Assembly (NCBI RefSeq): GCF_004010195.1
Contig: NC_057746.1
Location: 1,171,882-1,226,485, forward strand
Source: Chiloscyllium plagiosum
Taxonomy: Eukaryota
Direction: 5' to 3'
Length of the DNA stretch: 54,604 nt
Shown here piece by piece: positions 8,478 to 51,689 of this stretch (within the stretch, counting starts at the first letter, position 1; each line of letters starts with the position of its first letter). The notes beneath the pieces are model-generated. The model was not told where the DNA came from. It saw only the letters and a program-made list of their open reading frames with translations, and did not search any database. A program made the translations under genes and the position numbers.

Positions 8478-8977
8478 NNNNNNNNNNNNNNNNNNNNNNN
8501 NNNNNNNNNNNNNNNNNNNNNNNNNNNNNNNNNNNNNNNNNNNNNNNNNNNNNNNNNNNNNNNNNNNNNNNNNNNNNNNNNNNNNNNNNNNNNNNNNNNN
8601 NNNNNNNNNNNNNNNNNNNNNNNNNNNNNNNNNNNNNNNNNNNNNNNNNNNNNNNNNNNNNNNNNNNNNNNNNNNNNNNNNNNNNNNNNNNNNNNNNNNN
8701 NNNNNNNNNNNNNNNNNNNNNNNNNNNNNNNNNNNNNNNNNNNNNNNNNNNNNNNNNNNNNNNNNNNNNNNNNNNNNNNNNNNNNNNNNNNNNNNNNNNN
8801 NNNNNNNNNNNNNNNNNNNNNNNNNNNNNNNNNNNNNNNNNNNNNNNNNNNNNNNNNNNNNNNNNNNNNNNNNNNNNNNNNNNNNNNNNNNNNNNNNNNN
8901 NNNNNNNNNNNNNNNNNNNNNNNNNNNNNNNNNNNNNNNNNNNNNNNNNNNNNNNNNNNNNNNNNNNNNNNNNNNNN
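8478..8977. other. Assembly gap of exactly 500 N, probably a placeholder scaffolding gap
   Basis: Round length; the other gaps are 34587-34781 (195 N) and 47347-48152 (806 N). Confidence 0.9.
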
Positions 8978-9031: not shown

Positions 9032-9280
9032 ATTTCGGTTCCGGGGAGCCGCGGGACAGGTTCTTCCAAACATTTAAATTCTGTTTCATGATGGCGATAT
9101 TGGCTGAGATCCCCGCCTCTCCTCCCTGCATGACATGATTGTTAAACTCAGGGATCCGGGCCACCTCCTTCTTCAGGTTGAAATCCATGTATAAAACCTC
9201 ATCTCCGTCATCCTCCAGGTCAAACTGTTTATCGGGGCTGCTGTCCTGAGCCATGAAGACCGAGAGCTGTTCATGTTGGT
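9032..9280 (-). CDS. MHC class II alpha chain, exon 2 (alpha-1 peptide-binding domain)
   Basis: 249-bp phase 1-1 exon with (CT)n-CACAG acceptor and T|GTAAGT donor. Translation (Y)QHEQLSVFMAQDSSPDKQFDLEDDGDEVLYMDFNLKKEVARIPEFNNHVMQGGEAGISANIAIMKQNLNVWKNLSRGSPEPK contains the class II alpha DGDE..Y.DF, PEF and N62/N69 hallmarks and resembles nurse shark class II alpha as I recall it. Confidence 0.95.
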
Positions 9281-22466: not shown

Positions 22467-22740
22467 TAAAAATCCTGGAACTGGATTTTCGGCTTCAGTG
22501 TGGGAATTGGGAGGTGGATCATTTCCCAGCATCATGATCCTGCTTCTACCCAGACAGTGGATTTTCAACAGAGGGAGCTGGGGCAGGAATGGAGCCAGGC
22601 CGGAACAGCAACACTGAAGGGGGATGGTTTAAGCAGAACTGGGTCAAATGGGCTAATACAGATTTGTCTCGATGTCATCTTCATATTGCAAGAAATCCAA
22701 GCTCTCCACTGAAGGAAGTATTACAGTTGGAACTCTATTC

Positions 22741-23049
22741 TGGGCACAGTGGCTCAGTGGTTGTTGCTGCTGCTTCACAGTGCTAGGGACCCGGGTTCGA
22801 TTCCAGCCTCAGGCAACTGTCTGTGTGGAGTTTGCACATTCTCCCCGTGTCTGCTTGGGTTACTTCCCACAGTCCAAAGATGTGCAGGTCAGGCGAATTG
22901 GTTATGCTAAATTGCCCGTAGTGTTAGGTGCAGGGGCAAACATAGAGTATTAGGGTGAGGGAATGAATTTGGGTGGATTACTCTTGGAGGGTTAGTGTGG
23001 ACTTGTTGGGCCGAAGGGCCTGTTTCCACATTGTAGGGATTCTATGATT
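22741..23049 (+). mobile_element. HE1-type SINE, part of the left arm of the inverted duplication
   Basis: A/B boxes, core and GTAGGGATTCTATGA tail. Confidence 0.85.
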
Positions 23050-23417: not shown

Positions 23418-23484
23418 ATTTCACAGCCAAGGTTCCTTGAAGTAAAACCAGCATTAATATAGTAATGTAACATCCAGCTTCCAT
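23418..23484 (-). CDS. MHC class II alpha chain, exon 1 (signal peptide)
   Basis: AGAATGG start context; MEAGCYITILMLVLLQGTLAVK plus T then GTGAGT donor (67 nt, phase 1). Splicing to exon 2 makes T+AC = Tyr and keeps the frame. Hydrophobic leader directly downstream of an X-Y-TATA promoter. Confidence 0.92.
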
Positions 23485-23618: not shown

Positions 23619-23690
23619 TATTTATAAACCAATCACCAATCGAGATCTCCTTCATCAGCTGTTTCCAGGTGAAATTCAAACTTGTTCTGT
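23619..23690 (-). promoter_or_regulatory. MHC class II alpha proximal promoter (S-X-Y and TATA)
   Basis: Minus strand: weak S-like AGAAC ~23688; X1 CCTGGAAACAGCTG 23669-23656; 19-nt spacer; Y GTGATTGGTT 23636-23627, preceded by a second GATTGG; TATAAATA 23626-23619; about 140 bp upstream of the ATG. Confidence 0.88.
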
Positions 23691-23789
23691 ATTACTCTGA
23701 CTGAGGAGAAAGTGAGGTCTGCAGATGCTGGAGATCAGAGCCTTGCGTTATGTTTACTTGAGAAAGAATTGCAGTCAGATGGATATATG

Positions 23790-24310
23790 CTCCGAATAGA
23801 TATTTTAGGATTATTATAGGAAAGATATTATTAAACTTGAAAGAGTGCAGAAGAAATTTACAAGGATGTTACCACGACTCAATGATTGAGTTATAGGGAG
23901 AGGTTGGACAAGCTAGGACTTTCCTCTTTAGAGTATAGAAGACTGAGGGAGGTTCTTATAGAAGTGTTTGCGATCGTGAGAGGCATGGATAGGGTGAATG
24001 CACGCAGTCTTTTTCCCAGGGTCTAGGACTAGAGGGCATCCGTTTAAGGTTAGATAGAGGGGAATGAAAAAAAGGGAACCTGAGGGGCACGTTTTTTACA
24101 CAGAGGGTGGTACACATATGGAATGAGCTGCCAGTGGACATGGTTGAGGTGGGTACATTAACAACATTTAAAAGGCATTTGGACAAATACATGGATAGGA
24201 AAGGATTAGAAGGATATGGGCCAAGTGCAGGGAAATGGGGTTAGCGCAAGTGGACATATTGGTCGGTATGGCCCAGTTTGGGCTAAAGGGCCTGTCTCTG
24301 TTGTAGGACT
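23790..24310 (+). mobile_element. CR1 LINE 3' fragment
   Basis: KDIIKLERVQKKFTRMLP, ERLDKLGL, RTRGH, FFTQRVVHIWNELP. Confidence 0.8.
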
Positions 24311-25289
24311 AAACAGTTTCTGTTTTACTCTGCTTCTAATGTCTCCTGCTGTCCTCCATTTCTATTTCATATTCCCAGCTGAAACCCTTGCGTTTACTTT
24401 ATTTGATTCAATCAAAGTGTCTCTATAGAGAGAAATATGGTTTCCAATGTTTCATTGGGTTTTACCTCTGAAAGTTCAGGATATTGAGAAATTGGAAACT
24501 AAAACCTATCTCTGTCGTTTTTGCTGTCTTCTTCTCCTTTCCCATTTTTTATAGGTGTAGAAAAAATAAAGTTAAAACAAAGGGTTAGAGTGTCAGTTAC
24601 TGAAGTCAATCATAATCTCACAATGTTTGAAAAGTTAGAGTTCACAGTTCGGGACTATACTGCTTTTAAGTAGTCAGGTAGACGAAAGTGAGGACTGCAG
24701 ATGCTGGAAATCAGAGTCAAGATTAGAGTGGTGCAGCATCCTAGGAGCAGGAAAATCGGCATTTCGGGCACCTGCTGGGCTTTTCCAGCACCACTCTAAT
24801 CTTGACTCTGCTTTTAGTTAGTGCCTCTGCCGTCAGCATTACCCAATCTTCTCAAATTAGACCAAGCCTCAAGACAAGGGTGAGGACACAGGTCTTGTTC
24901 ACTCCTTCACCCTGATAATAAATTCTGGTTGGTTTGACACTGTTTACTGTCAGACTCCCCTCACCTTCTGAACACAGGGTATTCAGTTGCAATGATCAGA
25001 TCCTGTATACTCCCAGGGCAGGAACAGAATGTGTATCAGATTGATTTAGATTCATGCATTATTACACATTGCCTGTTTGAACAGCATCTGAAAACCATAT
25101 CTGTGTCTCAGTGAATGATAAGAGTGACCGCGATGATGCCAGTATTTCAATATAATGTGTTTTGCTGCAGCTTGTGATTGGGAAATGCTGATTGTTCCTC
25201 CACATGTCACAGAGTGAAAATTTCCCAACTAACTGGTGCTATTTGAAAATGTCTCTAATTGCTGTGTCAATGGTTGAGATCAATCCATA

Positions 25290-25333
25290 AACCAATCTGA
25301 TCACAGCCTGACTGACCATCAGCTGTCTTTGGG
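25290..25333 (-). promoter_or_regulatory. Distal X-Y module in the same orientation as the alpha gene
   Basis: X1 CCCAAAGACAGCTG 25333-25320 (continues ATG, as in the proximal promoter); 20-nt spacer; Y CAGATTGGTT 25299-25290. Confidence 0.65.
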
Positions 25334-25525
25334 TCAAGTGCTGAAAGCTTAAAAATGTGTTGCTGGAAAAGTGCAGCAGGTCAGGCAGCATCAAAGGAGC
25401 AGGAGAATCGACATTTCGGGCATAAGCCCTTCTTCAGGGATCAAGTGCTGAAACTCAAGCAGAATGTTCAGTTAAACTTCAGCCTCGGTCACACATACTG
25501 CCTTTACAATGTCTCCCCCTGCAGG

Positions 25526-26250
25526 AGTTATAGAGATGTACAGCACGGAAACAGACCCTTGAGTACAACTTGGCAATGTCAACCAGATATCCCAACCCAA
25601 TCTAGTCCCTTTTACTAGCATTTGGCCCATATCCCTCTAAACCCTTCCTATTAATATACCCATCCAGATGCATTGTAAATGCTGTAATTGTACCAGCCTC
25701 CACCACTTCCTCTGGCAGCTCATTCCATACACGTACCACCCTCTGTGTGGAAAATGTTGCCCCGTAGGCCCCTGTTAAATCATTCGCCTCTCACCATAAA
25801 CCTATGCCCTCTAGTTCGCGATTCCCCCCATTCTACCAACCCTGGGATGAGTCCTTGTCTATTTATCCTGTCCGTGCCCCTTATAATTTTATAAACCTCT
25901 GTAAGGTCGCCCCTCAGCCTTCGACGCTCCAGGGAAAACAGCCCCAGCCTGTTCAGCTTCTCTCTATAGCTCAAATCCTCCTACCCTGTTGTGGTTCTGT
26001 TCACCGAGCTGGGAATTTGTGTTGCAGACATTTCGTCCCCTGTCTAGGTGACATCCTCAGTGCCTGGGAGCCTCCTGTGAAGCGCTTCTGTGATGTTTCC
26101 TCCGGCATTGTCACCTAGATAGGGGACGAAACGTTTGCAACACAAATTCCCAGCTTGGCGAACAGAACCACAACAACGAGCACCCGAGCTACAAATCTTC
26201 TCCCAAACTTTGTCCTCCTACCCTGGCAACATTCTTGTAAATCTTTTCTG
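25526..26250 (-). mobile_element. CR1/HER1 3' fragment with nested fold-back Penelope-derived insert (~25987-26212)
   Basis: ORF 25780-25974 SYREKLNRLGLFSLERRRLRGDL; insert bounded by duplicated TCCTCCTACCCTG. Confidence 0.8.
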
Positions 26251-27049
26251 AGAATTAATTTCTACCATTAACCCAGGAACAAACATTAGGGGAGATTAGT
26301 CTACATCAGGGGCTGGAGTTTTCAGTCCCCAGATGGGACAAACTGGGTCAAACATGGTGGCTGGGGCACCACCTAGAACTCTCTCACTGTCCCATTTCTG
26401 GTACTGGTTATCTACATCAAAGTGATCTGAGGGAATTGATCAGCTCAGTTTATAAAAATTCATTTACAGATGAGGGCATTGCTGGTCAGACCAACATTTA
26501 TTTATCTATTATAATTGCCGTCAGAGGGCAGTTAAAAGTCAACTACATTGGCTATGGGTCTGGAATATGTGTAGGCCAGACCAGGTGAGGATGGTTGTTC
26601 CCTTCCCTGAATAAGATGGGCTTCTCAAACAATTGACAATAGTTTCATGGTCATCATTAGATTCTTAATTCTAGATTTTTATTGAATTCAAAATCTACCA
26701 TTTGCCATGATGGGATTTGAACCTCTGTCCCCAGAACTTTACCTGTGTCTTTGGATAACTGGTTTTTGATACAGAGAATATCAACAGCGCGGGCTCAATT
26801 CCAGCACAGGTTGAGGTTACCATGAAGGTCTCTCCTTCTCTCACCTCTTGTGAGATAGCAGCCTATGGTCTGGTAAGACTATGGTGACTTTATTGACAAG
26901 GCACAGGGGTTCCAGCAGCTTGCAAAGAACCTAAGGCCTGTCGGATGCCCTGCTAAATTGACAGCTGAAGCAGGTATAATTTTGTAACTGTGACAACAAT
27001 GTGCGGTCTCTAACCACAACAACAAAGCACCATCAGGAACGGAATGGCA

Positions 27050-28250
27050 GACCATTTATCAGTTGGCAGGAAGGTTCTGGAATGCGTCAAGTGCATGAGC
27101 AAACCATTGCTGTAAAGTGAGCTAGGAAGGTATGGGAGTTACGTAGGGGGAAGGGAGAAGAGGTGGGGGGCGAACTCCAAGAACTCAGACGCCACTTAAA
27201 TATCTGCCACCAAGGAGGCACTCGACTTGCAAATTGCCACCCTAGGACAGAAATTGAAGCACTGAACAAGGATTCTGTGCACCTGGCCCACCACAGCAGG
27301 CTCATTTCCCTGGAGATGTCTGAGCCACCTTAATGATGAATTAGCACCGAGAAACACCCTAGCGACAGGCTCTCCCAAGTGAGCATTCACTGTTACCGTG
27401 GCCCATGAAGTCTTCAACTCAAGTTCATCCGAGGGTTCTTTTGCTAAGCTGTGTGGGATATCCCAGTCGTTGTAGCATCCATGTAGTTACAGATGTCCTC
27501 TTCACAAGTGTCTCTGACTGGATCAGCCTTTCAAAAGATACAGCTTCACAACAGTACAGGACAATGGATTTTGCATCAGTAGCTGGCTTCCCAAGGGGCC
27601 AGGGCTTTATAGACTGAACCCAGGAGCCCTGAAGAACTCAGCGGGTATGTTCATTAACAGGAGAGTCTACCATCAGTGCTCAGCCGGAGTGTGACCATCA
27701 ACAGAGTTTCCTACAGGATTAGGCATCCTTGCCATGCAGCTCCCTTTACACGGACTCCGGGCTGACTCTGCATTTTCACCTGACCCCTCTGTTGGATAGT
27801 GGGACTCCAGTTGCCTCCAAACATTCCTGTGAGGATTCCAAACTGAGTCCCAGGACATTACAGCAAGGGTAACCTGGACACCAGGACACTCTTTGAACAG
27901 ACTGTATACCAGAGGCCTACTCAGGGAGATTTTGATGCCTTGAGCACACTCTGGTGCACCAATGCAATATTCATCTTTTTGGGTATCCAGATTGGTTGAT
28001 ATGTGCTGCATGCTACACAACACTGTACAGCAGTGGAGTGCTCTGCTAAATGAGATGGTCAACAAAGGAGGCCCTGTATCCTTGGAGGATGAAGTGGTGC
28101 ATGATTAGGAAGAAGGGCAGGGACTCAGATGCAGAGGATTCTGATGTTCAGGGTGGATTGCGACATCATGATGCTGGGGATGTGAAGGTGGATCCAGGCT
28201 GGCTTGCTGCGACCTACTGCATGTTCACAAAATAGACAGCAGGTGAATGC
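27050..28250 (+). mobile_element. Decayed PIF/Harbinger transposase (HARBI1-like)
   Basis: FASVAGFPRGQGFID (~27569; cf. AGFP..xGAID), FINRRVYH (~27650; cf. NRKGxHS), SGAPMQYS (~27950), MCCMLHN (28001; cf. ACCxLHN), in the expected order with stops and frameshifts. Confidence 0.7.
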
Positions 28251-28424
28251 AGACATTAGCTGGATCAGCAGACCATCAGTATTCTGTTTTCTCAGGCAGC
28301 AGAGCAACAAGTCTTGGGAATGTGGGATGATTGTGATTTTACTGAGGTTCACTTCACGCTGGGCCAGTTTAAAAGGGATATCAAACATTTATCCAACAAC
28401 GAGATAAACTGTGATAATAACTAG

Positions 28425-28770
28425 AATCATAGAATCCCTGCAGTGTGGAAAAAGGCTCTTTGGCCCAGCAAGTCCACACCCACCCTCCGAAGCGACTTTC
28501 ACCCAGACCCATTCCCCTATAACTCTACATTTACCTCTGACTAATGCACCTAACCTACACATCCCTGAACACTATTGGTAATTTAGCATGGCCAATTCCC
28601 CTAACCTGCACATCTTTGGACTGTGGGAGGAAACGGGAGCACCCGGTGGAAACCCATGCAGACATGGGAGAATATGTAAACTCCACACAGACAGTTGCCT
28701 GAGGCTGGAATCGAACCCGGGTCTCTAGCACTGTGAAGCAGCAGCGACAACCACTGAGCCACTGTGCTCA
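28425..28770 (-). mobile_element. HE1-type SINE, part of the right arm of the inverted duplication
   Basis: Full head, core and tail on the minus strand. Confidence 0.85.
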
Positions 28771-29889
28771 GAATACAGAGTTCCCACTGTAATATTTCCT
28801 TCAGTGGAGAGCTTGGATTTCTTGCAACATGAAGATGACACCGAGGCAGATCTGTATTAGCCCATTTGACCCAGTTCTGCTTAAACCATCCCCCTTCAGT
28901 GTTTCTGTTCCAGCCTGGCTCCATTCCTGCCCCAGCTCCCTCTGTTGAAAATCTACTGTCTGGGTAGAAGCAGGATCATGATGCTGGGAAATGATCCACC
29001 TCCCAATTCCCACACTGAAGCTGAAAATCCAGTTGCAGATATTTTGAGAGAAGAGGTCATGGAGATAACCAGACTGTGCTGCATTCCCTGGCACTTCCCT
29101 GCACAATCAGACTCCACCTACTTGGTCTGAGAACTAAGATTGACAGTTCATTGTTCTTGCTGCATACTCAATGCCAATGATGCCCCAAACAGGACTATCT
29201 TCTCATTCTGGATAAAATGGGGCTCTTATTTTTTTCCCAAGTCTATGTCTTGTGTCCTAGTTCTAGTGAGTGCAAGCCAGAAAGTTTCAACTTCTCACCT
29301 TCTTTGAGACTTAAGATTTTAGTTTCACAAATTAAACATTTATGTTCCGCCTTCCCCGTTGCTGCACCTTTGACTCAGTCATACAGAGCCTCCTGAAGGT
29401 CTGTGGCTATGAATTGCTTGTCTTGTCAGTAGTGAGGACAGGTGTAGGGATACAATACTGGGGGAGTACTCCGTACCGACCAGTGCAAGAACAAAGGCAG
29501 AATAAGATTATAACAGATAGGAGTCAGAGAACACCATGTTACCTTATCTTCATTCTCCTGTCTGCCTGCAATAAACCTTGATGTCCTGTAGATTCAAAAA
29601 TCTTTCTACAGTACCCAGCCTGCACTGCCTTCCAGGGTAAAGAAATCCAAAGACTCTGAGAGAAAAAGAGGTGAAGGATTCCTGAATGTGTACAGGAGAA
29701 CTTCCCAAATGGTGTGTTTTTCTACTGAAATGTGGGTTATTTAATAAATAACTGAAATGATGGACATCACTGAGACCCAGATCCTGGGATCATGTCATAT
29801 ATAGCTGGAGTGATGAAGGGCACTGAGGTTAGAACACAGGAGATATTTAATATCTGGTTGGTGGTTATATTGAAAGGATACTTTTCACA

Positions 29890-30168
29890 GAATCAAAGAA
29901 TCCCTACAATGTGGGAAGAGGCCATACTTTCCATCAAGTCAGCACCAACGATCTGAAGAGCCTTTGAACCAGATCCCGACACCCCCACTTTTTCCCTGAA
30001 AACCAACCGTCCTGACCTGCACATCTTTAGATTGTGGGAGGAAACCAGAACACCCAGCAGAAATTCACACAGGGAGGACATGCAAACTCTGTGCAGTCAC
30101 ACGAGGCTGGAATCCAGCCTAGATCCCTGGCACCGTGAGGTAGCAGTGCTAACCACTGAGCCATTGTG
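29890..30168 (-). mobile_element. HE1-type SINE
   Basis: GCACAATGGCTCAGTGGTTAGCAC head and GTGGGAAGAGGCC-type tail. Confidence 0.8.
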
Positions 30169-30499
30169 CAACTCTGTCTTGCTGGAGCTCTGAAACCAGG
30201 ATACAAAGTGGTTCAAGGGCCTTGTCAATCTGAATATACCTGAGGTTCTGTTTACATTTGTAGAAATCCTAACCATTACTGAGAGTTTCTCATTTCCCTG
30301 TATCACTGGCACAGTAATTGTTATTCATTGGGATATGGATGAGACGTGTGGGAGGGAGCATTTGAGTGACCTCCCTTTCCACTATGATGTTAACACTGAC
30401 TACATCTTCACATTCCCACTTTCCCCATTTCACCTTCCCAATACAAATCCTTATCCTTTCCCCAACCTTCGCACAGTTGTATGAAGTAATTCATTATTG

Positions 30500-30690
30500 T
30501 GGTACTAGAGGGCGCCATGACATTACCGTGCTGTACAGAAAAATGAGACTATCCCAACAAGTTCACCCAGAGACAGGTGACTCTTCAGGAAGCTGGATTG
30601 TTATTGGCCAGCGCCAGGATTTAAGTCGGTTTGTATTTATTTTTTGTGTGTACTTCTCGTCTGTGGTTTCACTTCTGGGGACTTTCCAAA
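30500..30690 (+). promoter_or_regulatory. Inverted distal S-X-Y module with upstream CTCF-like motif and downstream RUNX, IRF-like and NF-kB sites
   Basis: ACTAGAGGGCGC 30504-30515; S-like GAGACT 30545-30550; X1 CCCAGAGACAGGTG 30566-30579 with X2 TGACTC; 20-nt spacer; Y GTTATTGGCC 30600-30609; TGTGGTTTCACTT 30662; GGGACTTTCC 30678-30687. Confidence 0.8.
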
Positions 30691-30859
30691 CCCTCAGCGC
30701 CTCTGATAAATCACAATGAAATGTAACCCTATCCAATCCTTAGATCACTGCTGTCCTGTGAGTACTCTAATTATAGCCTGAAGTTTCCAGCCACTGGTTA
30801 CCTCACTTCGTGAAGTGTCTATTCACCCACATCAACCCCAGACTGACTGTAGAGCAATG

Positions 30860-32530
30860 CTGTCCATTAATGGAGAACTTGAGTTACTAAAGTATTAGGT
30901 GCAACACAAGCCAAGTTGTTCCAGTACAGTTACAACACTGCTATCGACCTGACAATGTGAAAAATTGCCCAGGTATGTTCTGTATACAGAAAGCAGGATA
31001 AATCCAACCTGGCCAATCACTGCCCCAACAGCCTCAGGCGACTGACTGTGTGGAGTTTGCACATTCTCCCTGTGTCTGCGTGGGTTTCCTCCCACAGTCA
31101 AAAAAAAGTGCAGGTCAGGTGAATTGGCCATGCTAAATTGCCCGTAGTGTTAGGTGAAGAGGTAAATGTAGGGGAATGGGTCTGGGTGGGTTGCACTCCA
31201 GCGGGTTGGTGTGGACTTGTTGGGCCGAAGGGCCTGTTTCCACACTGTAACTAATCTAATCTAAAAGATGGTCTACTCTTCATCATCAGTAAAGTGTTGG
31301 AAATTATTGAAGTGCTGTCAAGTGGAACTTATACAGCAGTAACCTGCTCAATGACACTCAGTTTGGGTTCCACCAGGGCCACTCAGCTCCTGACCTCATT
31401 ACAGCCTTGGTTCAAACATGGACAAAAGAGCTGAATTCCAGAGACAACCCTTGACATCAAAGCTTAATTCAACCAGGTCTGGCATCAAAGGAACCCTATC
31501 AAAGTTAGAGACAATGGGAATTTGGGGGCAAATTCTCCACTGTTTGAGTCATCAGAAAATGGATTGTTGGAGGTCAGTCATCTCAGCTCCAGAACATCTC
31601 AACAGAAGTTCCTCGAGTTAGAATCCAAGACCCAACCATCTTCAGCTGCTTGATCAATGACCTTCCCTCCATCATAAGATCAGAATTAGGGATGTTCACT
31701 TATGATTGCACTCCTGAGACACTGACGCAGTCCATGTTCAAATTAAGGAAGATCTGGAGATCATCCAAGTGTGGGCTGTAAAGTGGTAAGTAACATTTGT
31801 ACCACATAAATACCAGGCAATGACCATCTCCAATAAAAGAGAATCTAATCACTGTCCCTTGACATTCAGTGACATTGCCATCACTGAATCCTCCACTATC
31901 AACACCCGAGGGAGGGAGGTTACTGTTGACCAGAAACTGAGCTGGACTAGCCATGTAAATAAAGTAGCAACTAGAGCTAATCAGAGGCTATCAACATTGC
32001 GATGAGTAACTTCTCTCCTGGCTCCTTAAAGCCTGTCCACCATCTACAAGGTGCAAGTCAGATGTGTGATGGAATATTCCCCACCTCCCTGGATGGTTGC
32101 AGCTCTAACAACATTCAGGAAGCTTGACACCATCCAGGGTAAAGCAACCCACTTGATTGGCACTGTATATACAAGCATCCACTCCCGTGACTACCAACGC
32201 TCAATAGCAGCAGTGTGTAGTGGCTACAAGATGCACTACAGAAATTAAATATAGATCCTTAGACAGCTCCTTCCAAACCCATGACCACTTCCTTCTAGAG
32301 GGACATGGGTAGCAGATGCATGGGATCACCACCCCCTGCAAGTTCCCCTCTAAGCCACTCACCCTCCTGACTTCTTGTTCCTGGAACTCCCTTTCAAGGG
32401 CATTGTGGGTTCACCTGCACCACACTCTTCGACTCTAATCTCCAGCATCTGCAGTCCTCAGTTTCTCAAGGAGGCAGCTCACTACCACCTTCTCAGGGGC
32501 AACTGGGGATGGGCAATAATACTGGCCCAG
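30860..32530 (+). mobile_element. CR1/L2-group LINE fragment interrupted by a 5'-truncated HE1 SINE (~31030-31264)
   Basis: PTIFSCLINDLPSII, IYKVQVRCVMEYS, KLDTIQGKA; SINE ends in (CTAAT)n. Confidence 0.7.
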
Positions 32531-33459
32531 TTAGTGACACCCATGTAACACTAGAAGAAAAGTCAGATTTGCATTCCCTCTCAGTGTATTATTTTTGAAG
32601 GTTAACCACCTATTTAAATGTTGGAAAATCTGATATTCAATTTATATAAGTCTTATGTTGCATTGATTGGGGGAGGAATTGTGCCTGGAATACTGATATC
32701 AGTTGTACATTAATTGTTGCATTATATACAGCTGGCATTAAATGGAGATTCACTTCTCACCTTTCAAACAGGTGCAATCTATTTGGTTGAAAATGTGTTG
32801 CTGGAAAAGCGCAGCAAGTCAGGCAGCATCCAAGGAGCAGGAGAATCGACGTTTCGGACATGAGCCCTTCTTCAGGAATCTATTTGGTTGTTTGTTTGCA
32901 ATGTGTAACTCTATAAATCAAGAAGATTGGATCCAGTTCTTTTTGACTAACTAGATTCCTCGATCACAATAACATCGAAGCGTTCTTAGTTTCTGTTTAA
33001 GAAGGTTTATGTTACCTGGACAGGTGATTAGGACCTTGGTATAAATTCTATCCACAGGGTGGCCCCTCCTGACAGTTCTTCTATCCAGTGTCCCCAGGTG
33101 GGTAATTTCCCCAGAAACCTTTAATGACAGTTTCTGAAGTGGTCAAAAGGGACATTAAATGGAAAGGCTTGTTTGATGAAGCTATTGCAATCTGTGTCAA
33201 AGTGTGATGCTGGAAAAGCACAGCAGATCAGGCACCATCTGAGGAGCAGGAGAGTCAATGTTTCAGGCATAAGCCCTTCATCAGGAATGTGTGGAGGGCA
33301 AGGGGGCTGAGAGATAAATAGGAGGGTGAGGGGTGGGGGGGGGTGGGGGTACATGGGAAGGTGATAGGTGGCTGCAAGTGGGGGGTGATGGTGATAGGTT
33401 AGTCACAGTTTTTGACTCTGGCTCTCCAGTATCTGCAGTCCTCACTTTCTCCAAGTTGC

Positions 33460-35130
33460 AATATGTGGACCAGCTTCTTTGAGGATCAGTAATGCTTTGA
33501 TTGCCAATTAAACTGACTTCTGTTATTCATTAAAGAAACTGTGTGCTGGCCAGTGTTAGATTTAGCAACCTATCATACAAGTGACCAGGCGTTAAAAAAC
33601 AAAAGCATGGCTGAGAACTATGAGTCTTATTGACTGCATGTTCAGATTAATATCTGAGTTAGGTTATATGAAGAAGACTTCTGAGGTTCTTTGGGAGACA
33701 TGGCGGGGCATCTCATCCACATTATGAATCAAGAGAATGACATCGCTGAGAGTTTTATGCAATGTTTCAATTCCCAATACTTACATCCTCTTGTCAGAAT
33801 TACTCTACTTAACCTTTTCAAATTAAGTTTTCCCAGGTTGCTTCTGTAAATTTCAAAACTTTTGCCTCTGTGCTTCAGGGACGGAATCATATTTACAATT
33901 ATATCTTATTTTTGCAGAATCATAACCTTTATAACCTTCTCCCACAATGAAGCAATAACTTCCTGTGCTTCACCTGTCAGCTTGCTCTGCATAGGCAATG
34001 TCCAGTTTTCCTTTGGCCACTTCACCTGTTTTGCTATTTCCGCAATTCATAAAAGGAATGCTTCCGCAATGTTTCCCCCAGTCTTAAAATAAATTCCACT
34101 CAGGAAATGTTTATGACCAGGATTTATTTTATGACTATGTCTCCCCTTTGGAACCCTCTTTCACTTTGTGCCCTTTTTGAATTGTATCATTTCAAACTTA
34201 AAATATTTATCTTTTTCTCTGAGTCTTGCACATTTCTAGTTCTGGTCTTTTCATTTCACCCTTTTCAATTCCATCTCTCTGTTCTGTAGCTTTTAATAAT
34301 GTCTAATGCCCTTTCCTTATCTTTTTCTGCTGTTTGGAATTCCATTTCCAGCCTTTTCATCTTTTTCCTCACACTGAAACTGCTTTGATTCTAACACAAT
34401 ATGAACTGATTCTGATGTCTCCCTGGATGAATTACCTTGTCTCTCCTATATCTCTGAGGAGAAAGTGAGGTCTGCAGATACTGGAGATCAGAGCTGGAAA
34501 TGTGTTGCTGGAAAAGCGCAGCAGGTCAGGCAGCATCCAGGGAACAGGAGAATCGACGTTTCGGGCATAAGCCCTTCTTCAGGAATNNNNNNNNNNNNNN
34601 NNNNNNNNNNNNNNNNNNNNNNNNNNNNNNNNNNNNNNNNNNNNNNNNNNNNNNNNNNNNNNNNNNNNNNNNNNNNNNNNNNNNNNNNNNNNNNNNNNNN
34701 NNNNNNNNNNNNNNNNNNNNNNNNNNNNNNNNNNNNNNNNNNNNNNNNNNNNNNNNNNNNNNNNNNNNNNNNNNNNNNNNNCTGTTCCCTGGATGCTGCC
34801 TGACCTGCTGCGCTTTTCCAGCAACACATTTCCATCTCCTATATCTCTGTTAAGTCCGAACGTTATGCTAGCCTTTCAATTATTAATGCTGCCTTCGTTT
34901 TGGCAAACCGTTCCAATTCTCATTTATTTGTCAGTTCTGTCAGCTTGGCTTTTGAGTTCTTTTGTATGAGATATTTCTTCCAGCAGCAGCAAGACTTTAG
35001 CAGTTTTTAGTGCCATCTTCTCTATTAGAGTGTAAAATGTGTTGTTTTAGTTTATTCTTTTATAACTGTACACCAATTCTAGTACAGTACTGAGGAAAAT
35101 TGGGTTGCTGTATCATCTTTCAACTGAACT
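33460..35130 (-). mobile_element. Decayed Gypsy (Gmr1-like) LTR retrotransposon gag with possible integrase scraps
   Basis: Minus reading ~34050-33830 gives IAKQVKWPKENWTLPMQSKLTGEAQEVIASL then, after a shift, YDSVPEAQRQKF*NLQKQPGKT, matching the SCAN-related gag of Gmr1-like elements. Interrupted by a Penelope-derived hairpin at 34456-34840. Confidence 0.65.
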
Positions 35131-35139
35131 GTGCAGGGA

Positions 35140-36376
35140 CAAGTGTTTTTGCAAATCATATAAACAGGGAGGTAGAGAGGGCTTTAAACTCAACAATTGG
35201 GGGAGCTTTCAAGCTTGGTAGACATCACAAATCAAGGATAGAGTCAAGGCAATACAGCAAAATATTAATTTAGGAGATAAAGCTCAGAGATTGGTAGGCA
35301 GGGACAGAAAGAATAAAATGAAGTACACGCCAACAGTCAAGACTAGATGTTCCAAAGATAAACAAAATATAAAATTAAAAGCATTTTAATACATGTAGCA
35401 TTAACAACAAAGTAAACAAATTCATGAAGCAGGCCCAAAGGGTGGAATGGCCTACTACCACAGCTATTTTCTATGTTTCACAGCTGACATTGAAGTAAAC
35501 GAATATAATTAGATTAGATTACTTACAGTGTGGAAACAGACCCTTCGGCCCAACAAGTCCACACCGACCCGCCGAAGCGCAACCCACCCATACCCCTACA
35601 TTTACCCCTTGCCTAACACTACGGGCAATTTAGCATGGCCAATTCACCTGACCTGCACATCTTTTGGACTGTGGGAGGAAACCAGAGCACCCAGAGGAAA
35701 CCCACGCAGACACGGGGAGAATGTGCAAACTCCACACAGTCAGTCGCCTGAGTCGGGAATTGAACCCGGATCTCTGGCGCTGTGAGGCAGCAGTGCTAAC
35801 CACTGTGCCACCGTGCCGCCCACAATCTGATAGTCATTACAGGTGCATGGCTGCAGGATCCAAGGATAGCTGAATATTGTGGAGTACATGACGTTCAAGA
35901 AGAATAGCTATCTGGTGTAAAGTGAAGGAGTGTCACTGATGATCGAGGGTGACATTAGTGCAGTGGTTAGAGATGATCTTGGTTCAAGACATCAGGACAG
36001 AAAGGAAGTAAGGCAAAGATGTCACGACAGTGAAAGGTCTACAGACTGCCTAAAAGTAATCACAATGTAGGACATGTATACAAGGACAAATACTGGGTGC
36101 TTGTGAGAAAGGGCCAACAATAATCTTAGGAGGTATAAAAGATTATTGTACAAAATGAAGGTTTCCAATATAGAGTTAACATATTAATCTATGTTTAAAT
36201 TAGAAAAAATCAGACTGGCAATGATAGCCTTTTACCCCAAATATTTTCTGCTAAATCTGGAGCCAGCTAGAGAGTAGGTTATCCTATGCTTGGAAACAAA
36301 ACAGAAATTGATGGAAAAACTCGGTAGGTCTGGCAGAATATGTGGACAGAAAGTAGAGGCAGTGATCCTTCTTCAG

Positions 36377-36412
<36 letters not shown>

Positions 36413-37940
36413 TGGTTCAAAGCTGCCTTGGCCCTCAGTACCATTTCATCCTCTGGCTCATAAGGATCTCTGGACTTGAAATGTTAACTCTGTTTTCTCT
36501 CCACAGATGGTGCCAGACTGGCTGAGTGTTTCTAGCTACTTCTGTTTTTGTTTCTGATCTCCAGCATCTGCAGAACTTTGTTTTTTTTTGTAAACTGTGT
36601 TTGGTATTGTTTAATGTGACAGGATTAATTAATAACCTCAAGTTAACCTACCTCTAGGTAGCAATGATCATGTGATTAACTTTTACATCCAATCTTAAAA
36701 GGGAGAAGAGTGGGTCTAAGACTAATATTTTAAACTTAAATGGGTCTAAAAGCTGGACTAGCTGAAGTGAACTGAGACAGAAAACTGGGGACCAGAATCA
36801 TGAGAGAAGCCTTGGTAGATATTTAAGGGGAAATTTCAGAATACTAATTTAATACTAACTTAAAACTTCAGAGTAAGTATGTTCCTACTATAAATTCTAA
36901 AAGGAAACCCATCATCCCTGGTCAATGAAACAAATTAAAGAAAGAATCAGATTTAGGGAAAAAACATACAATTGTGAGGGGAAGAGTGGGTGAACTGATG
37001 ATTAGACAGAATATAAATTGTAGAGGGAATGAAAGAATTATCAGGAGAAATAATTGAAGTATGAGAGGAAGCTAGCTAGAAATGTAAAAAATAGACAACA
37101 AGAATTTCTACAAATATTTTAAAAGGATAAAAGTCAGTAAATGAATGTTGGTCTTCTCGAGAGTGAGAATGGAGAGTTAATAGTTGATAATAAAAAATGG
37201 CAGATGAATACGTTTTCGTTCTGTCTTCACTATAGAGGACGCAAAGAACACCTCAGAAATATCTGTAAATCAGCAGGTAGAAGCAAGGGAGGAACATAGT
37301 AAATTACAGTTGCTGATCAAACTGATGGGGCAGTGGGCTCTAGTTGAACTGCCCGAGGGTCGTAAAATAAACTGCTGGGGAGATTTTAGATGATTATAGT
37401 TAGTTTTCCAAAATTGCTTCAATTCAGGAAATGTTCCATTGGAATTAAAAGGATCAAATTTAACTCCTCTATTCAATAAGGGAGGGATTGAGAAATCAAA
37501 GAAGCCACAGGCCAGTTACCTTAATATCTGTCATGAGGAAGATGTTAAAATTTATCGTGAAAGATATTGTAACAGGTAACTTAGGAAAACTCAAGGTAAT
37601 TGGGAGTAATCAGCATATACTTTGTGAAAGGGAAATTATGTTCAGTCAATTTAAGTGGAGTTTATTAAAGGAGAAACATGCAATGTGGACAAAGGGGATC
37701 TTGTAGAATACTGTACTTAGACTGAAAGCATTTGATAAGGTGACACATTAAAGATTATTGTACAGAATTAAAGCTCATCCTGTAGAGGGTAATGTAGGAG
37801 GGATAGAAGATTGACTGACACAAAACAGAGTGTACTTAAATAGTACATTTATAACACAATTACTGATTGGTATGACGTGATTAATTAAGTCTTGGAGATG
37901 CCTGTGCTAGGGATTTAGTTTTCTGCAAGTTATGTCAATC
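35140..37940 (+). mobile_element. Degenerate CR1 LINE (endonuclease to RT) with nested SINE and short repeats
   Basis: RPVTLISVMRKML, KAFDKVTH and FRSVFT motifs. Confidence 0.65.
35508..35823 (-). mobile_element. HE1-type SINE, well preserved
   Basis: GGGCGGCACGGTGGCACAGTGGTTAGCAC head, CpGs retained, (TAATC)n tail. Confidence 0.9.
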
Positions 37941-38699
37941 ACTAGGGAGGGAGAGGCATTGTGTTGCTCTTTCAAGGAGCCATCGCATGTCCCGTCCGCC
38001 TCATGGGTGTTCTGTGTCACTGCACAATGTCTAAAATTCGTTCTAAGGATTGCGGTGCTGTGGTCAAGACCTGCATTCGTTCCCCATCCCTAATTGCGTA
38101 GAAAGAAAAGGTCATTCTCAATGCAACTACATGGTGTTGTTGCTCCTTTCGAAAGGAAGTCAAGAGCAGCATGGGTGTGCATTGTTAGTCCATGTAAACC
38201 AAACCTGACAGATTTCCTTCCATAAACCAGCAGTTTTTAAACCACAGTCAGGTATTTTATTGCCATCTTTACTATTGCTAGTTCTTTTATTCCCGATTTT
38301 TATTAAATCAGTTGAATTTAAATTAAGGTGGAATTTGGTCTCATGCCTCCAGATAATTAGACCAGATCTCTGGGTGAGTTCTGAAGAAGTGCGAGATCAG
38401 ATTTGAAATATTAACTCAGTTTTTTCTGTCTGCACAGGTGTTGCCAGACTTGCTGAGTTTCTTCAGCATCATCTTTGTTTGCTTTGGCCAGTCTGAGCCA
38501 TTAATATTAAATCATTGACCAAAGACAAGTTTTGGAGGTTTGACTGAAGTAAAAGAGACACTGCAAGGAAAAATCCTTTACACTATGTTAAGATGTGATT
38601 AGCTGATGTAAGATTGGGTTAACTACAGACTTTATAAAGATTAGACAGCCTGCCAACAGGCCGTGCCTTTTAATATTTTCCATTCCATAAATATCCAGA

Positions 38700-39020
38700 A
38701 TCAAACCTTCACCAGCCTAATCTACCCAGTGACTGATGACTCCTATTTGTGATTGGCCGTGTGGTAACCACAGTAATGTTTACATCCCATGACGGTGTCA
38801 GTCAGACTGTATAATGTGGAGTCAGGTTGATAGGGACTTTCCAAATCCATCTCCAACTGTGAACACACTAAATAAACCACAAGAGTCAGTGTTAATCCTC
38901 AATCCAGTCTCAGGAACAGGGACTTTCCAACGAAACCGTGAATTACCGGTAAGACATAACCTGCCTCTCCCCCAACACTAAACAAACCATATTTATCTGC
39001 TGTCACCAAAGGAAGTCAAT
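38700..39020 (+). promoter_or_regulatory. Inverted distal S-X-Y module with 10-bp X-Y spacer and tandem NF-kB sites
   Basis: S-like CAAACCT 38702-38708; 16-nt spacer; X1 CCCAGTGACTGATG 38725-38738 with X2 TGACTC; Y GTGATTGGCC 38749-38758; RUNX palindrome TGTGGTAACCACA 38760; GGGACTTTCC at 38833 and 38919; AAAGGAAGT ~39008. Confidence 0.72.
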
Positions 39021-39764
39021 GTCAATTCTCATGCTGCAAAGGCTGACATTCATTCTCCACCCATCATTGCCCTTATAGCATTTGGTGATAACAACACAGA
39101 ATGGAATGAGGCTATTTGGCCGAATGAAACTGCATCAGTATTTTCAAACAGTAATCTAGTTATTCACACCCACCTATCTTTCCATTATTCCCTGCATTCT
39201 TTTCTCTTTTTTTGAGTATTTATTTTTTTCCCTTTTGAAAGTTACCGTTGAATCTGCATCCACTGCCCTTGCAGACAGTACATTCCAAATCCTAACCACA
39301 CATTGTGGATAAAGTAAGGTTTCATCTTGCCTTTGGCTTTTTACCCACTTATTAACCCTATATTGCCATTTGAAGCCATTTTTCCTTTTAAACTCCCTTT
39401 GACCCCTTAACTTTAAACCTGCTGAGCGTTTCTAGTATCCTTTATTTTTATTACAGATTTCCAGTTTTGGTTTTGTACAGTCAGTAAGCTGCAGCGTGCT
39501 GACCTTTGCTGGGCGACAATTCCAAGCTGACTTTACCCAGTAATTCAAGGATACTCTGCAGGACTCAGTAGTTAATTGGTCAAAACTGGCTAAGTATTGT
39601 TTCAACCGCAGTTTGATTGAGTAACAAGGGCGATGTGAGCAGTGATATTGAATGGGAGCCAGGGCCTTTCACATGAAACCGTTCCTAACTGTTACACACC
39701 CATTTGCTAGCGCTCTGAGTCTCCCAGCAAATATAGAGCAGTGAACATCAATATCCATGTGGAT

Positions 39765-40125
39765 TATCGAGGGACATGGATAGGATAAATAGACAAAGTG
39801 TTTTCCCTGGGGTCGGGGAGTCCAGAACTCGAGGGCATAAGTTTAGGGTGAGAGAGGAAAGATATAAAAGAGACCTAAGGGGCAACTTTTTCACACAGAG
39901 AGTGGTACATGTATAGAATGAGCTGCCAGAGGATGTGGTGGAGGCTGGTACAAATGCAACATTTAAGAGGCATTTGGATGGGTATATGAATAGGAAGGGT
40001 TTGGTGGGATATGGGCCGGATGCTGGCGGGTGGGACTAGATTAGGTTGGGAAATCTGGTTGGCATGGACGGGTTGGACCGAAAGGTCTGATTCCATGCTG
40101 TACATCTCTGTGACTAGATGACTCT
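39765..40125 (+). mobile_element. CR1/HER1 3' fragment
   Basis: Near-identical to 14865-15208. Confidence 0.85.
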
Positions 40126-40449
40126 ATAATCTCAAATGGCAATCTACACTCTCCAACAGACTGAACCTCTAACCCTTCATTGTACATACTGTACATCAGT
40201 CTTTACTGAAAAGGTTCATTCAATACAATACAAATCCTTTTTACCAACAGCTCAAAAACACAAAACATTCTAGCTATGATCAGGAATGGGCTATTCTGCC
40301 TGTCAAACCTGCTGTCCCATTCAGTACAATATGATTGCTCATAGGCCACCAGCTCATTTTCCCACCTACTTGCCAAATCCATTGACTGTCTCAGAGGTCT
40401 AAATTCTTTCAGTCTCAGTCTTTACATTAAAAGACAGCACGTTCACAAA

Positions 40450-42180
40450 CTGCTAGCACCCACTTGGGAAATGCCCAGGTGGACAGAGTGGGCCACTTCC
40501 CAGAGGACTGCCAGAGGAAGCCTCCAGACCTGGGAAGCCTGGTCCAAGGTTGGCGCCCAGGACCAGCTTATTACAGGATATGACAGCCAGGACGAGGTCA
40601 AATAGGGGGAGTATGACATTCAGCTCATCACCCTTCCAAAGTGAGAATCCTGGCTCTCGCAGAGGATCAGGACTGCAAATGTAGGGTTGCTAGGACATCC
40701 TTATCTCTCTAACTAAGTACCACTCTGCAATCCACTGCAACCCTGCTGTCAGTCTCATTCATTGCTCAGCACTTCCAACCCGTGACACCTTCAGTCTGTT
40801 GTGTCTTGCAGGTACAGCCAGTATTTCCATAAACTCTGTGGAGACGCGCCTGACTCTCCCAGAGTCACCCCCTCACCCCCGATCCCTGGGGACAAAAGTC
40901 CCAATGTCTCAGAGAAGCAAGGCTGCTGCATACCTAGGTGGGAACCAATGCTCCCTCTAAGCTGCCCGGCTGTGCGTGCACACACAGCTGTTCTAAGGAT
41001 CTGCACAACACAGGTCAGCGGTCAGCCAACACCGTTCACTGTACTAATCTCCTCGTCAGGAATCAGTGTCACACACACACACACCCCTTGGAAATCAGGG
41101 GAAAGCTGGAGGGAATGTTGTGCTGAGAGAGTGGGAACACATTTTAGTGAGCTCCTCACTATGACAGCTCCTCAGCTGGCCCAGGAAGACATGCTCCAGG
41201 TCACTGACACTAGGAGGGCTGGCAGAAACTGTGCTGGAAACTGGGCACTGACATCTCAGGGTACACTCCATTTCTCTCTCCCTCTCTCTCTCACACACAC
41301 ACTCACCATGTTCAAGGACATTGGCATCTAACATGTAAGAACCCTCATGGCATTACCTTTCAGCCACTTACAGGGCACTCCTATACTTCAGTGCTGGTCC
41401 TCAGACTGCACTGGCAACTCTGAGTGTAACACTGCAGCAAGGTCAGTTTGTGCTCAGGGACACACACCCAGCTCATAGACTGGAACAGGCTGCAGCTGTG
41501 GGCTCTTCATCATTGTCATAGCACTAACTCAGTCTGAGGATACTCACATCATCCCTGCCTTGCATTGGCTTTACCTTGCCTTTTTGCGACCTCATTCAGA
41601 GATACCAGGTTCATTTCACATGTGTCCAGTTGTGCTTTTTAGTACATACACAAGGCCAAGGAGTTTGTCAGAGTTGTCAGTGGTCCTCAGTCATGGCAGA
41701 GATCTTCACTCAGGCATTCCCAGCACAAACTCAAGGGCAACCTCAGGTTACCAGTCCAGGTCTTGCTTGGGGGTGTCAGAGTCAGGATCCTCTCCTTATA
41801 AGAGGTGAGGAGTTGAATGTCAGGCAGCACGCTCCCTGAGTTGGGTATTTCTGCCGTATCGTGGGCTGTTTTTGTCCAGGACAGAGAGGCAGACAGGTAT
41901 TTCAGAAGGTGCAAGTAATTCTGCCAGTTATTATTATTGGTGCAGGTGGTGAGATGTCCTGGGTGAAAGAGTAGACAGCACAGAGGAGATGCCGGGTTTA
42001 TAGTGTCAGGGATTGGGGAGGGTGAGAGTGAGTGAGGGAAGGTGCTGCAGGCAGTAGTGAGAATGGTTGAGTGTGTGCCTTGGTGAGAGGTGGGTATATT
42101 GTCAGGTGGATGGTGAGTGTGAGATATCGGAGAGAGGATCTTACTGTGGTGCACTGGAGAAAGGCATTGAGCAGATGGCA
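40450..42180 (-). mobile_element. Possible decayed Harbinger Myb/SANT-like accessory gene region
   Basis: Minus 41877-41775 reads KTAHDTAEIPNSGSVLPDIQLLTSYKERIL, resembling the 'TGGG..LTPxEERxL' segment that follows Harbinger Myb/SANT domains. Weak similarity only. Confidence 0.4.
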
Positions 42181-42373
42181 GGTTTTAATGGATGGTATTG
42201 TCACTTTCAGTTCCAGATTTGATGACTTGAATTTAAGTTCCACCAGGTACAGAGCTAGATTTGATCCCATGTGATCAGATTATCAGCCTGGGCACAGGGA
42301 TTACTAGCATGGTAACATGACCACTTCACCACTGTCTGCCTTATTCCTCCTTCCTAAACATCATTGTAAAAAT

Positions 42374-42440
42374 ATGAACTCACTGAGAGAGTTCTCTCAG
42401 CAACAGATGACAGTCTGTGTTCTGCTGATCCTATTGGTTG
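42374..42440 (+). promoter_or_regulatory. S-X-Y module, either an inverted distal enhancer or the promoter of a divergent gene
   Basis: S-like TGAACT 42375-42380; 15-nt spacer; X1 CTCAGCAACAGATG 42396-42409 (HLA-DRA X1 is CCTAGCAACAGATG); 20-nt spacer; Y CCTATTGGTT 42430-42439. Confidence 0.8.
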
Positions 42441-42905
42441 ACGGTGTAGCTGCCTGAGCTTGTCTCCAGTGGGGTTGGTCAGGTGAACAAACAGAAGCTG
42501 TGGCTTTAGTCTGTTACCCTTGTCTTCTCTCACACACAGTTCACATGGACTCTCTCCAAACTCTGACGCATGCAACACACAAATGCTTATTTGGTAATAT
42601 TCTTTGAAACAGTTTTGATTCAAACAATACTAAAATTAATTTCAGTTTCAGCCATCAAACTCACTTATTTCTGGTGGTAAAGACACAGTCTGAAGTCAAG
42701 GTGAAGAGATGGTCATGTTACTCTGACCCCCATTAAGGTATGGACTGAAAAGTGATAAATTACATTGACCTGGTCATCTCCAACATGAGAGATACTTATC
42801 ACTGTCTCTAAGTATTCAATAGCATTATCATCACTGAATCCTACACTGTATTGAGGGCATAAACTAGGGGTTATCTCTGAATAGAAACCAACATCACAGC
42901 ACATC

Positions 42906-50190: not shown

Positions 50191-51689
50191 TTTCCAAATG
50201 CAACTTTCACAAAGACATTCTGCCTGGCAACTGATGACACATTATAGTTGTGTAATTTCAATGGTTGGAGCATGTTTCTCTCTATAAAATTAATGACACT
50301 TGGCAGATTGAGGCGCTGGGGTGGACCTGTTTGTTTGCTGCTCTGGTTGGGGATTTTCCAGTCAGGCCCTTCCCCCACCCTGTGTATTAGAACCTGAGTG
50401 AAACGACCTTTGCTTGCTGTATTTCTCAGTATATTGTAACCATACTTACATCTTAATAAACTTCTCATGTGCCATCCTGCCTATCTGATTTTGTTCTCTG
50501 CTGAACAACTTATCTTACAACTCCACTCAGTTCCTCCAGATAAAGGTGTTGCCTGGGTGCCTGCCTTTTTGTGGGATATCTGGAGTGTTTCTTGTTCTTA
50601 TGCCTCCTCTCTCCCCCCCCCCCCCTCTCTTTTCCAGTACATTGATGACTCTATCAGTGCCATTTTCTGCTCTTGCCCCAAGGTGAAAGTTTTATTGGCT
50701 TTGTCTTGAAAGGAAGATCTCTCAGTCTCCTAGTTCAAGTCTCCACCATGAGAAGAAACACTCACCTGATATCTACCCTATGCAGTGCCCTCAGGATCTC
50801 ATGTTTCAGCAAAATTACCTCTAATCTTCAATGGGTAAAGGCCCAAACTGTTAAACCTTTCTTCATTAGATAAGATCTTCATTCCAGATCTTCTCTGAAC
50901 TGCTTCTAAAGCAATAAATACATACTTTGTACAGTTTTAATCTCCAAATTAAACAGTAGTATAGATTTGATCTCACCAATGCCGCATTAAGCAGTAAATA
51001 CCGTATTTCTGTATTCCATTCCCAATGCAGTAAATCAATATCCCATTTATCTTACCCTACTGTTGCTGTACCTGTACACTAATATTTTGTGGTTCAGAAA
51101 CATATTAATAAATATTCATTAAAAACAGTGACTCCCAGTTTCCTCAACTACTTTCTCATATTCCTCTTCCTGTACAGACTAGATTCATTTCTCTGTTACA
51201 TCTGCTCTGACAGTAGTACCTGATCGAGTCTGTTTCACTAGTTAATATAAATGTGGCTGAACTTTGACCTCAACTTCACAATCTTTGTGTGGTCTTGTGG
51301 AAAGTAAATTGGATAGGCCTGAATGTATCTAAGAGAAAGTGAGCACTGCAGATGCTGGACATCAGAGTCGAAGAGTGTGGTGCTGGAAAAGCACAGCCAG
51401 TTAGACAGTGTCCGAGAAGCTGTAAAATCGACTGGTCGACTTTCCTGCTCCTCAGATGCTGCCTGACCAGCTGTGCTTTTCCAGCACTACACTCTTCGAC
51501 TCTGAATTTATCTAGAAGCCTCTGCTTTGTGTCGTCAGCCACTAGGTTTATAAAGAGATGACGATCAATAATTTTTGCAGCAATTATTCTCCCTTTATCA
51601 CAGTTTGAAGGATATTAATGATGACACAGCCTCCAGTTTATTCCAATCCAGTATTACTGGTGGATGAGTTTCCATCCATTAACCAATGG

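Follow-up and report, generated by a model that had tools for sequence, protein, structure and literature searches.

Promoters of class II genes of the major histocompatibility complex (MHC) carry S-X-Y boxes in teleosts, and in humans a distal S'-Y' enhancer of HLA-DRA, or class II locus control region, together with further distal S-Y modules, has reportedly been described by Masternak in 2003 and Krawczyk in 2004. The mammalian distal element is inverted, and the human genes around the HLA-DR/DQ super-enhancer are divergent. Here we describe four X-Y modules upstream of an MHC class II alpha gene in a 54,604-nt stretch of the genome of the shark Chiloscyllium plagiosum, which probably form a distal enhancer cluster of the same type. 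This whole stretch (the window) corresponds to C37:1171882-1226485 in the 3.56-Gb genome, C37 being the window's own contig, and was analysed with added flanks of 250 kb on the left and 150 kb on the right; negative or plus kb positions are relative to the window.

In mammals, RFX, CREB and NF-Y bind the X1, X2 and Y boxes in phase and recruit CIITA (PMC4381081; papers are cited by PMC accession for excerpts of their text, unless the main text is named). The distal element of HLA-DRA lies 2.3 kb upstream of the gene (PMC2677874), and this class II locus control region and other distal S-Y modules are treated in PMC2677874, PMC1802633, PMC1904273 and PMC7866136. Distal S-Y/XL elements are bound by RFX and CIITA and have enhancer activity (PMC7866136, PMC2677874). 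Within the literature searched, distal X-Y enhancers are described in mammals only. The initial annotation knew of no description in sharks, and no description of shark class II promoters or distal X-Y modules was found, with most subscription journals and paper supplements outside the scope of the search; the words 'promoter' and 'CIITA' are both absent from the main text of the two main shark class II papers (PMC8010645, PMC10751288).

The initial annotation listed five X-like 14-mers paired with ATTGG boxes (at 23669, 25333, 30566, 38725 and 42396), and all of them are present with the coordinates, strands and spacings claimed. They are given here as modules 1 to 5, together with a further module, B, found outside the window (bit scores are from the promoter-trained matrix described below):

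23629..23669, minus strand: module 1, promoter-proximal X-X2-Y of the alpha gene, 185 nt before the ATG
25216..25333, minus strand: module 2, distal X-X2-Y facing the alpha gene, matrix score 24.1 bits
30372..30809, plus strand: module 3 island, with X at 30566-30579 and ATTGG at 30603-30607
30665-30675, plus strand: interferon-stimulated response element (ISRE)-like GGTTTCACTTC of module 3
30678-30687, plus strand: NF-kB-type (kB) site GGGACTTTCC of module 3
38516..39306, plus strand: module 4 island, with S-like AAACCTT at 38703-38709, X at 38725-38738 and ATTGG at 38752-38756
38833 and 38919: kB sites of module 4
42347..42704, plus strand: module 5 island, with X at 42396-42409 and ATTGG at 42433-42437, matrix score 15.8 bits
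C37:1094783, 1133765, 1147978 and 1164833, left of the window: four copies of module B, an X-Y-ISRE-kB island

Measured from the X end to ATTGG, the gaps are 22, 23, 23, 13 and 23 nt (19, 20, 20, 10 and 20 nt to the 10-bp Y box used in the initial annotation). All five modules show 0-1 mismatch to the X consensus CCYAGNRACNGNTG, and in five of five an X2 half-site TGA(C/T) overlaps the X end. The Y spacing of 22-23 nt in four of them equals that of shark alpha and beta promoters, that of module 4 being 10 nt shorter. Module 1 is the promoter of the MHC class II alpha gene and, as had been noted, is the only one with a clear exon (alpha exon 1) behind it; tblastn queries of seven shark class II proteins gave no exon match behind the distal modules. 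The latter lie 1.7-18.7 kb upstream of the alpha promoter, and three of the four face away from the alpha gene.

A spacing-constrained scan (consensus with at most one mismatch, gap of 22-23 nt to ATTGG) finds four matches in the window, compared with a mean of 0.02 and a maximum of 1 in 150 dinucleotide shuffles, and none either in 262,899 bp of real flank or in 105,938 bp from ten other contigs. Across the genome, the strict form of the consensus has nine matches (reversed control, four), two of which are module 3 and its copy. A pattern loosened post hoc, after the modules had been seen, has 19 (control, two): seven within 113 kb here, one at the promoter of a second alpha gene and 11 elsewhere. 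Because circularity was to be avoided, the training set of the matrix was limited to five modules of promoters: two of alpha genes, two of a single beta promoter and one of a beta pseudogene. With it, the eight distal modules of canonical spacing rank immediately after the promoter and score 15.8-37.4 bits, the next site in 412,109 bp having 12.4; in the seven other sequence sets, no site outside the training set exceeds 10.3 bits. Module B scores are close to promoter scores. When the matrix is shortened by one helical turn, module 4 and its copy rank first and the third site has 16.4 bits. Across 454 kb, X-Y pairs of the module type are confined to the interval from -90 kb through +42.4 kb. 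The distal X-Y modules are non-random, far beyond chance. Motif scanning of metagenome contigs gave no match, as expected for a vertebrate motif, and Rfam had none in 20000-54604. A search of sequencing runs listed 24, none of the matching ones recorded as RNA and nine of them containing at least half of the promoter's words, which has no bearing on expression, chromatin or other species.

Downstream of the modules lie kB sites that were missed in the initial annotation. Ten of the 12 GGGA[AC]TTTCC sites in 412 kb fall within 450 bp of a module (0.29 expected), and in modules 3, 4 and B and the module 3 copy the first one stands at a distance of 108-120 nt from the start of X. Just ahead of it, module 3 and the B copies share TTTCACTTC, which we take to be ISRE-like, so that module 3 and the four B copies have both the X and the ISRE-kB blocks in common. 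Module 2 contains a degenerate kB-like GGGAAATTTTC 107 nt from X, a variant that was included in the scan on visual inspection; modules 1 and 5 lack kB sites.

An inverted, diverged copy of the module block is located about 120 kb away, left of the window, and includes copies of modules 3, 4 and 5. When it is compared with the 15,886 unique bp of window positions 26000-54604, only six stretches align, each of them belonging to module 3, 4 or 5 or to a decayed module at 39536. In the module 3 copy (C37:1089569, minus strand), X, Y, ISRE and kB positions agree at 53 of 55, the surroundings at 197 of 274 (Fisher p 2e-5); in the module 4 copy (C37:1081900, minus strand), which retains the short X-Y spacing and both kB sites, the values are 30 of 32 and 98 of 138 (Fisher p 0.006). 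Motif identity in the two pairs is 94-96%, against 71-72% around the motifs. Modules 3 and 4, like B (see below), are apparently under constraint between diverged copies within one genome; this does not extend to module 5. The inverted block may be a paralogue or a divergent haplotype, and the argument for constraint is valid for both; class II lineages in sharks can reach a great age and segregate as alleles do (PMC8010645). CTCF-like sites (two mismatches to the consensus; 15 such sites in 412 kb) precede modules 3 and 5 at 30502-30515 and 42168-42181, the former being lost from the inverted copy.

In all six pairwise comparisons, the B islands show 95.5-97.8% identity (ungapped) over about 375 bp, and their low-copy flanks 77.7-79.5% (gaps counted; two pairs with only 73 and 141 bp of flank). 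The B copies lie within segmental duplications, and no gene was found inside them. The genome holds at least four copies of B and at least two of module 3, all of them local; these counts are lower bounds because very common words were skipped in the search. An origin of B from a long terminal repeat (LTR) or transposon was rejected, with four local copies and no dispersal.

Three further features of the window concern the modules:

25347..25440, plus strand: short interspersed element (SINE)-like insertion of 94 bp with a 13-bp target-site duplication, spanning the S-box position of module 2
39466..39679, plus strand: decayed sixth module, with a degenerate X (39536, three mismatches) and ATTGG at a gap of 25 nt
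50201..50359, plus strand: X-X2 box at 50223 with S-like CAACTTT and kB-like GGGATTTTCC at 50350, without a Y box, a doubtful candidate

Two parts of the initial annotation did not hold. The islands were described as free of recognisable repeats; module 2 has the SINE-like insertion, and a similar short piece lies about 30 bp upstream of the module 1 X. S-like boxes were assigned to three modules at 15-16 nt; the consensus GRACCYT fits module 4 only (one mismatch, 15 nt), module 5 having two mismatches at 13 nt and the other three modules 3-4, and two or fewer mismatches are reached by 12% of random positions. The true alpha promoter also fails this consensus, so the shark S box may differ. 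A low-copy segment of about 270 bp occurs at 22475-22742 and 28769-29038, as inverted repeats bracketing modules 1 and 2.

That the window belongs to a shark MHC class II locus is borne out by alpha exons and 21 class II alpha homologues:

9032..9280, minus strand: MHC class II alpha exon 2 (alpha-1 domain), AG/GT borders read, PF00993
23418..23484, minus strand: MHC class II alpha exon 1, signal peptide MEAGCYITILMLVLLQGTLAVK, phase-1 GT donor

Exon 1, whose splice donor was read in the sequence, is identical to the database protein P0002 at 21 of 22 residues. Exon 2 has homologues of 66-86% identity: the 21 returned among 39 candidates are without exception class II alpha chains, those with names coming from sharks and rays. 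Exon 3 was not found in the window's scaffold, which carries a 500-N gap at 8478-8977; it was located only at +116.6 kb, +181 kb and 9.4 Mb away. Its occurrence on other scaffolds (C37:1288448, 1352717), in both orientations, suggests that scaffolds in the region are misordered, and their order is uncertain because of 500-N joins at 8478, -61665, -106165 and 85759. The same seven proteins in tblastn revealed a complete class II beta gene at -164.8 to -148.5 kb (C37:1007082, plus strand) and the last exons of another, including the transmembrane exon, at +68.2 kb on the minus strand, on the same scaffold as the modules. The position of this beta 3' end and of alpha exon 1 at 23418 places the modules between the beta 3' end and the alpha promoter, the two flanking genes being arranged head-to-tail. 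A PF00969 profile search of the genome gave no match, and its control was equally silent, so it is uninformative.

The second alpha gene (C101167) carries the same promoter module as module 1, with 71% identity across 350 bp; the promoter-trained matrix found no distal modules upstream of it. Homology of module 2 to B or to the DNA upstream of this second gene was unsupported by comparison. A long degenerate minisatellite (C101167:22000-35200) starts about 8 kb upstream of the second alpha promoter, and in the database protein P0001 a similar minisatellite-type repeat is fused ahead of an alpha chain, probably as a gene-model artefact.

Two beta promoters on small contigs (L105:1072-1450 and L106; C75909 and C85018) have two X-Y modules each, 310-440 nt before the ATG and 128 bp apart, followed by extra Y boxes (10 ATTGG overall), and one beta pseudogene promoter carries a single X-Y module. 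The beta gene at C37:1007082 has ~25-bp tandem units in its promoter (C37:1006800-1007080; L104:1330-1520), mostly with CTGATTGG, and no X-Y pair in 1,950 bp upstream despite seven ATTGG. The idea that shark beta promoters are devoid of X boxes was rejected, this gene being the sole exception; it may depend on distal modules, be CIITA-independent, be silent or be misassembled. In a third class II region (C37 9.98-10.03 and 10.53-10.60 Mb) the promoter-trained matrix found no distal modules. Two copies of class II beta exon 1 (L107 and L108; C37 ~10.00 and ~10.58 Mb) are split by the same insert of about 700 bp and are likely pseudogenes; one retains an X-Y module, and the second has alpha exons 3-4 nearby. 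B2M-like and class I-like alpha-3 exons, named by eye, are found on C37 0.3-0.7 Mb from the class II genes (L031 at C37:722625, L033, L036), in agreement with published shark MHC linkage. Divergent immunoglobulin C1 exons on two other contigs (L026 on C90121, L029 on C96786) presumably resemble W-category MHC alpha and beta chains.

Likened to the HLA-DRA elements by motif and position, the shark modules have promoter-like X-X2-Y spacing kilobases upstream of an alpha gene (2.3 kb in DRA, 1.7-18.7 kb here), and there are several per locus; their function is predicted only. Unlike those elements, they mostly have an unrecognisable S box, carry kB and ISRE-like sites about 110 bp downstream and include one module that is a turn short. 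The HLA-DR/DQ super-enhancer between DRB1 and DQA1 (PMC13653327, PMC7041702) resembles the shark locus in being a beta-alpha intergenic block with distal X-Y boxes, RELB sites having been noted in human (PMC13653327); the shark genes differ in their head-to-tail arrangement. The human boxes score below promoters and are dispensable, whereas the shark B modules score near them. Modules 3 and B also contain the motif types of the MHC class I promoter (enhancer A kB, ISRE and SXY; PMC4374748), with the difference that Y precedes their ISRE and kB sites and that they are not followed by a class I exon.

With moderate confidence, we read the four upstream modules as a CIITA/RFX-type distal enhancer cluster doing the same job as the mammalian ones, with NF-kB/IRF input. 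Extra X-Y copies, NF-kB-type sites beside three of them and the preservation of two in a diverged copy make long-range immune enhancers likely. By analogy with mammals, RFX would bind at X, CREB/ATF at X2 and NF-Y at Y, CIITA would be recruited to the bound modules, and chromatin would then open and loop to the alpha and beta promoters; NF-kB and IRF sites some 110 bp downstream would contribute further input. Of the proteins required, RFXAP is encoded in this genome, and CIITA and NLRC5 have been reported in whale shark (PMC8455134). A single X-Y-(ISRE)-kB unit was probably duplicated locally to give the array, some copies having decayed on either side. The label of locus control region, proposed initially, may apply to the cluster as a candidate. 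The cluster may also have originated with jawed vertebrates or be homologous to mammalian elements; given the likeness among the shark modules, local duplication within sharks and shared descent with mammalian enhancers account for the array equally well.

A number of observations weigh against this enhancer reading. S boxes are mostly missing; SINE-like sequence abuts modules 1 and 2, in the latter beginning 13 bp upstream of the X box and occupying the S position, and no copy of module 2 was found elsewhere. The X-Y gap of module 4 is one helical turn (10 nt) short; regulation by CIITA is tied to whole-turn X-Y phasing in PMC4381081, where function of a turn-short module is not demonstrated. 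The module 5 copy is 82% identical and has lost 8 bp through X/X2 and has GTTGG at Y, as a result of which its motifs agree at 22 of 32 positions and the surroundings at 252 of 307; this island was not kept for X-Y in both copies. The ten kB sites belong to families 3, 4 and B and represent three independent families rather than ten events, and in a window-only control two of 100 shuffles reach the observed three kB sites. Gene conversion could be a partial cause of the island identity. The search for RFX5 (PF14621) in the genome gave no match, and neither did its control, so it is uninformative. Finally, when two distal X-Y boxes of the DR/DQ super-enhancer were deleted in human B cells, CIITA binding was lost and transcription remained unchanged (PMC13653327), which indicates that such boxes need not be essential.

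A more far-reaching version is that the region is a duplicated super-enhancer built of a composite X-Y, ISRE and NF-kB unit, which would join class II and class I logic, predate their split and supply CIITA control even to the X-less beta gene at C37:1007082; long-range control would then be as old as jawed vertebrates. We entertain this only tentatively, as a rather unlikely extension. It is likewise unlikely, a little more so in our judgement, that the modules bind the enhanceosome and contribute little to class II transcription, being redundant copies kept alike partly by gene conversion. The dispensable, CIITA-binding boxes of the human super-enhancer (PMC13653327) fit such redundancy. So do the likeness of B islands over a length exceeding the motifs and the complementary decay at module 5 and at 39536, where the window side retains Y and the copy has an intact X/X2, a kB-like site and a changed Y (62% identity over 154 bp, 85% over 48 bp). 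At modules 3 and 4, however, identity peaks on X, Y, ISRE and kB and falls around them, a pattern of selection and not of conversion tracts.

Orphan promoters, whether of lost or unassembled class II or class I genes or of non-coding RNAs, are an improbable source of the modules. The assembly is gappy, with class II exons scattered across scaffolds and small contigs, and ISRE, kB and X-Y make up the parts list of a class I promoter (PMC4374748); yet the tblastn search described above found no exon behind the distal modules, and downstream of them there is no clear first exon of the leader type (visual judgement was applied to a few hydrophobic ATG frames). Moreover, they align to alpha and beta promoters at the motifs only, and Rfam was silent. 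Very improbable is that the ISRE-kB modules are NLRC5/interferon-type elements serving class I-pathway genes instead of CIITA-type class II enhancers. Class I promoters feature ISRE-like and kB sites, NLRC5 works from the same RFX platform, with the S box selecting for it (PMC4374748), and B2M-like and class I-like exons lie 0.3-0.7 Mb off; against this, the modules cluster at class II genes only, with high scores for a class II-promoter matrix, and the 29 kb preceding the B2M-like exon contain nothing above 10.3 bits. That the motifs match by chance or came with a transposable element or LTR is largely refuted and extremely improbable: five of the 19 post hoc genome-wide matches are in repeat-like context (two were read), but none of the 150 shuffles reached the observed count and the copies of module 3 (two) and B (four) are all in the region and not dispersed.

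Overall, as distal X-Y enhancers are known from mammals, what would be new here is a predicted distal X-Y cluster in a shark class II region with a kB/ISRE addition. It offers shark immunology exact, testable elements, and the pairing of kB and ISRE provides a handle on the divergence of class I and class II regulation. The apparently constrained shark cluster suggests that long-range control of the CIITA type may be as old as jawed vertebrates, or may have arisen repeatedly by local duplication.

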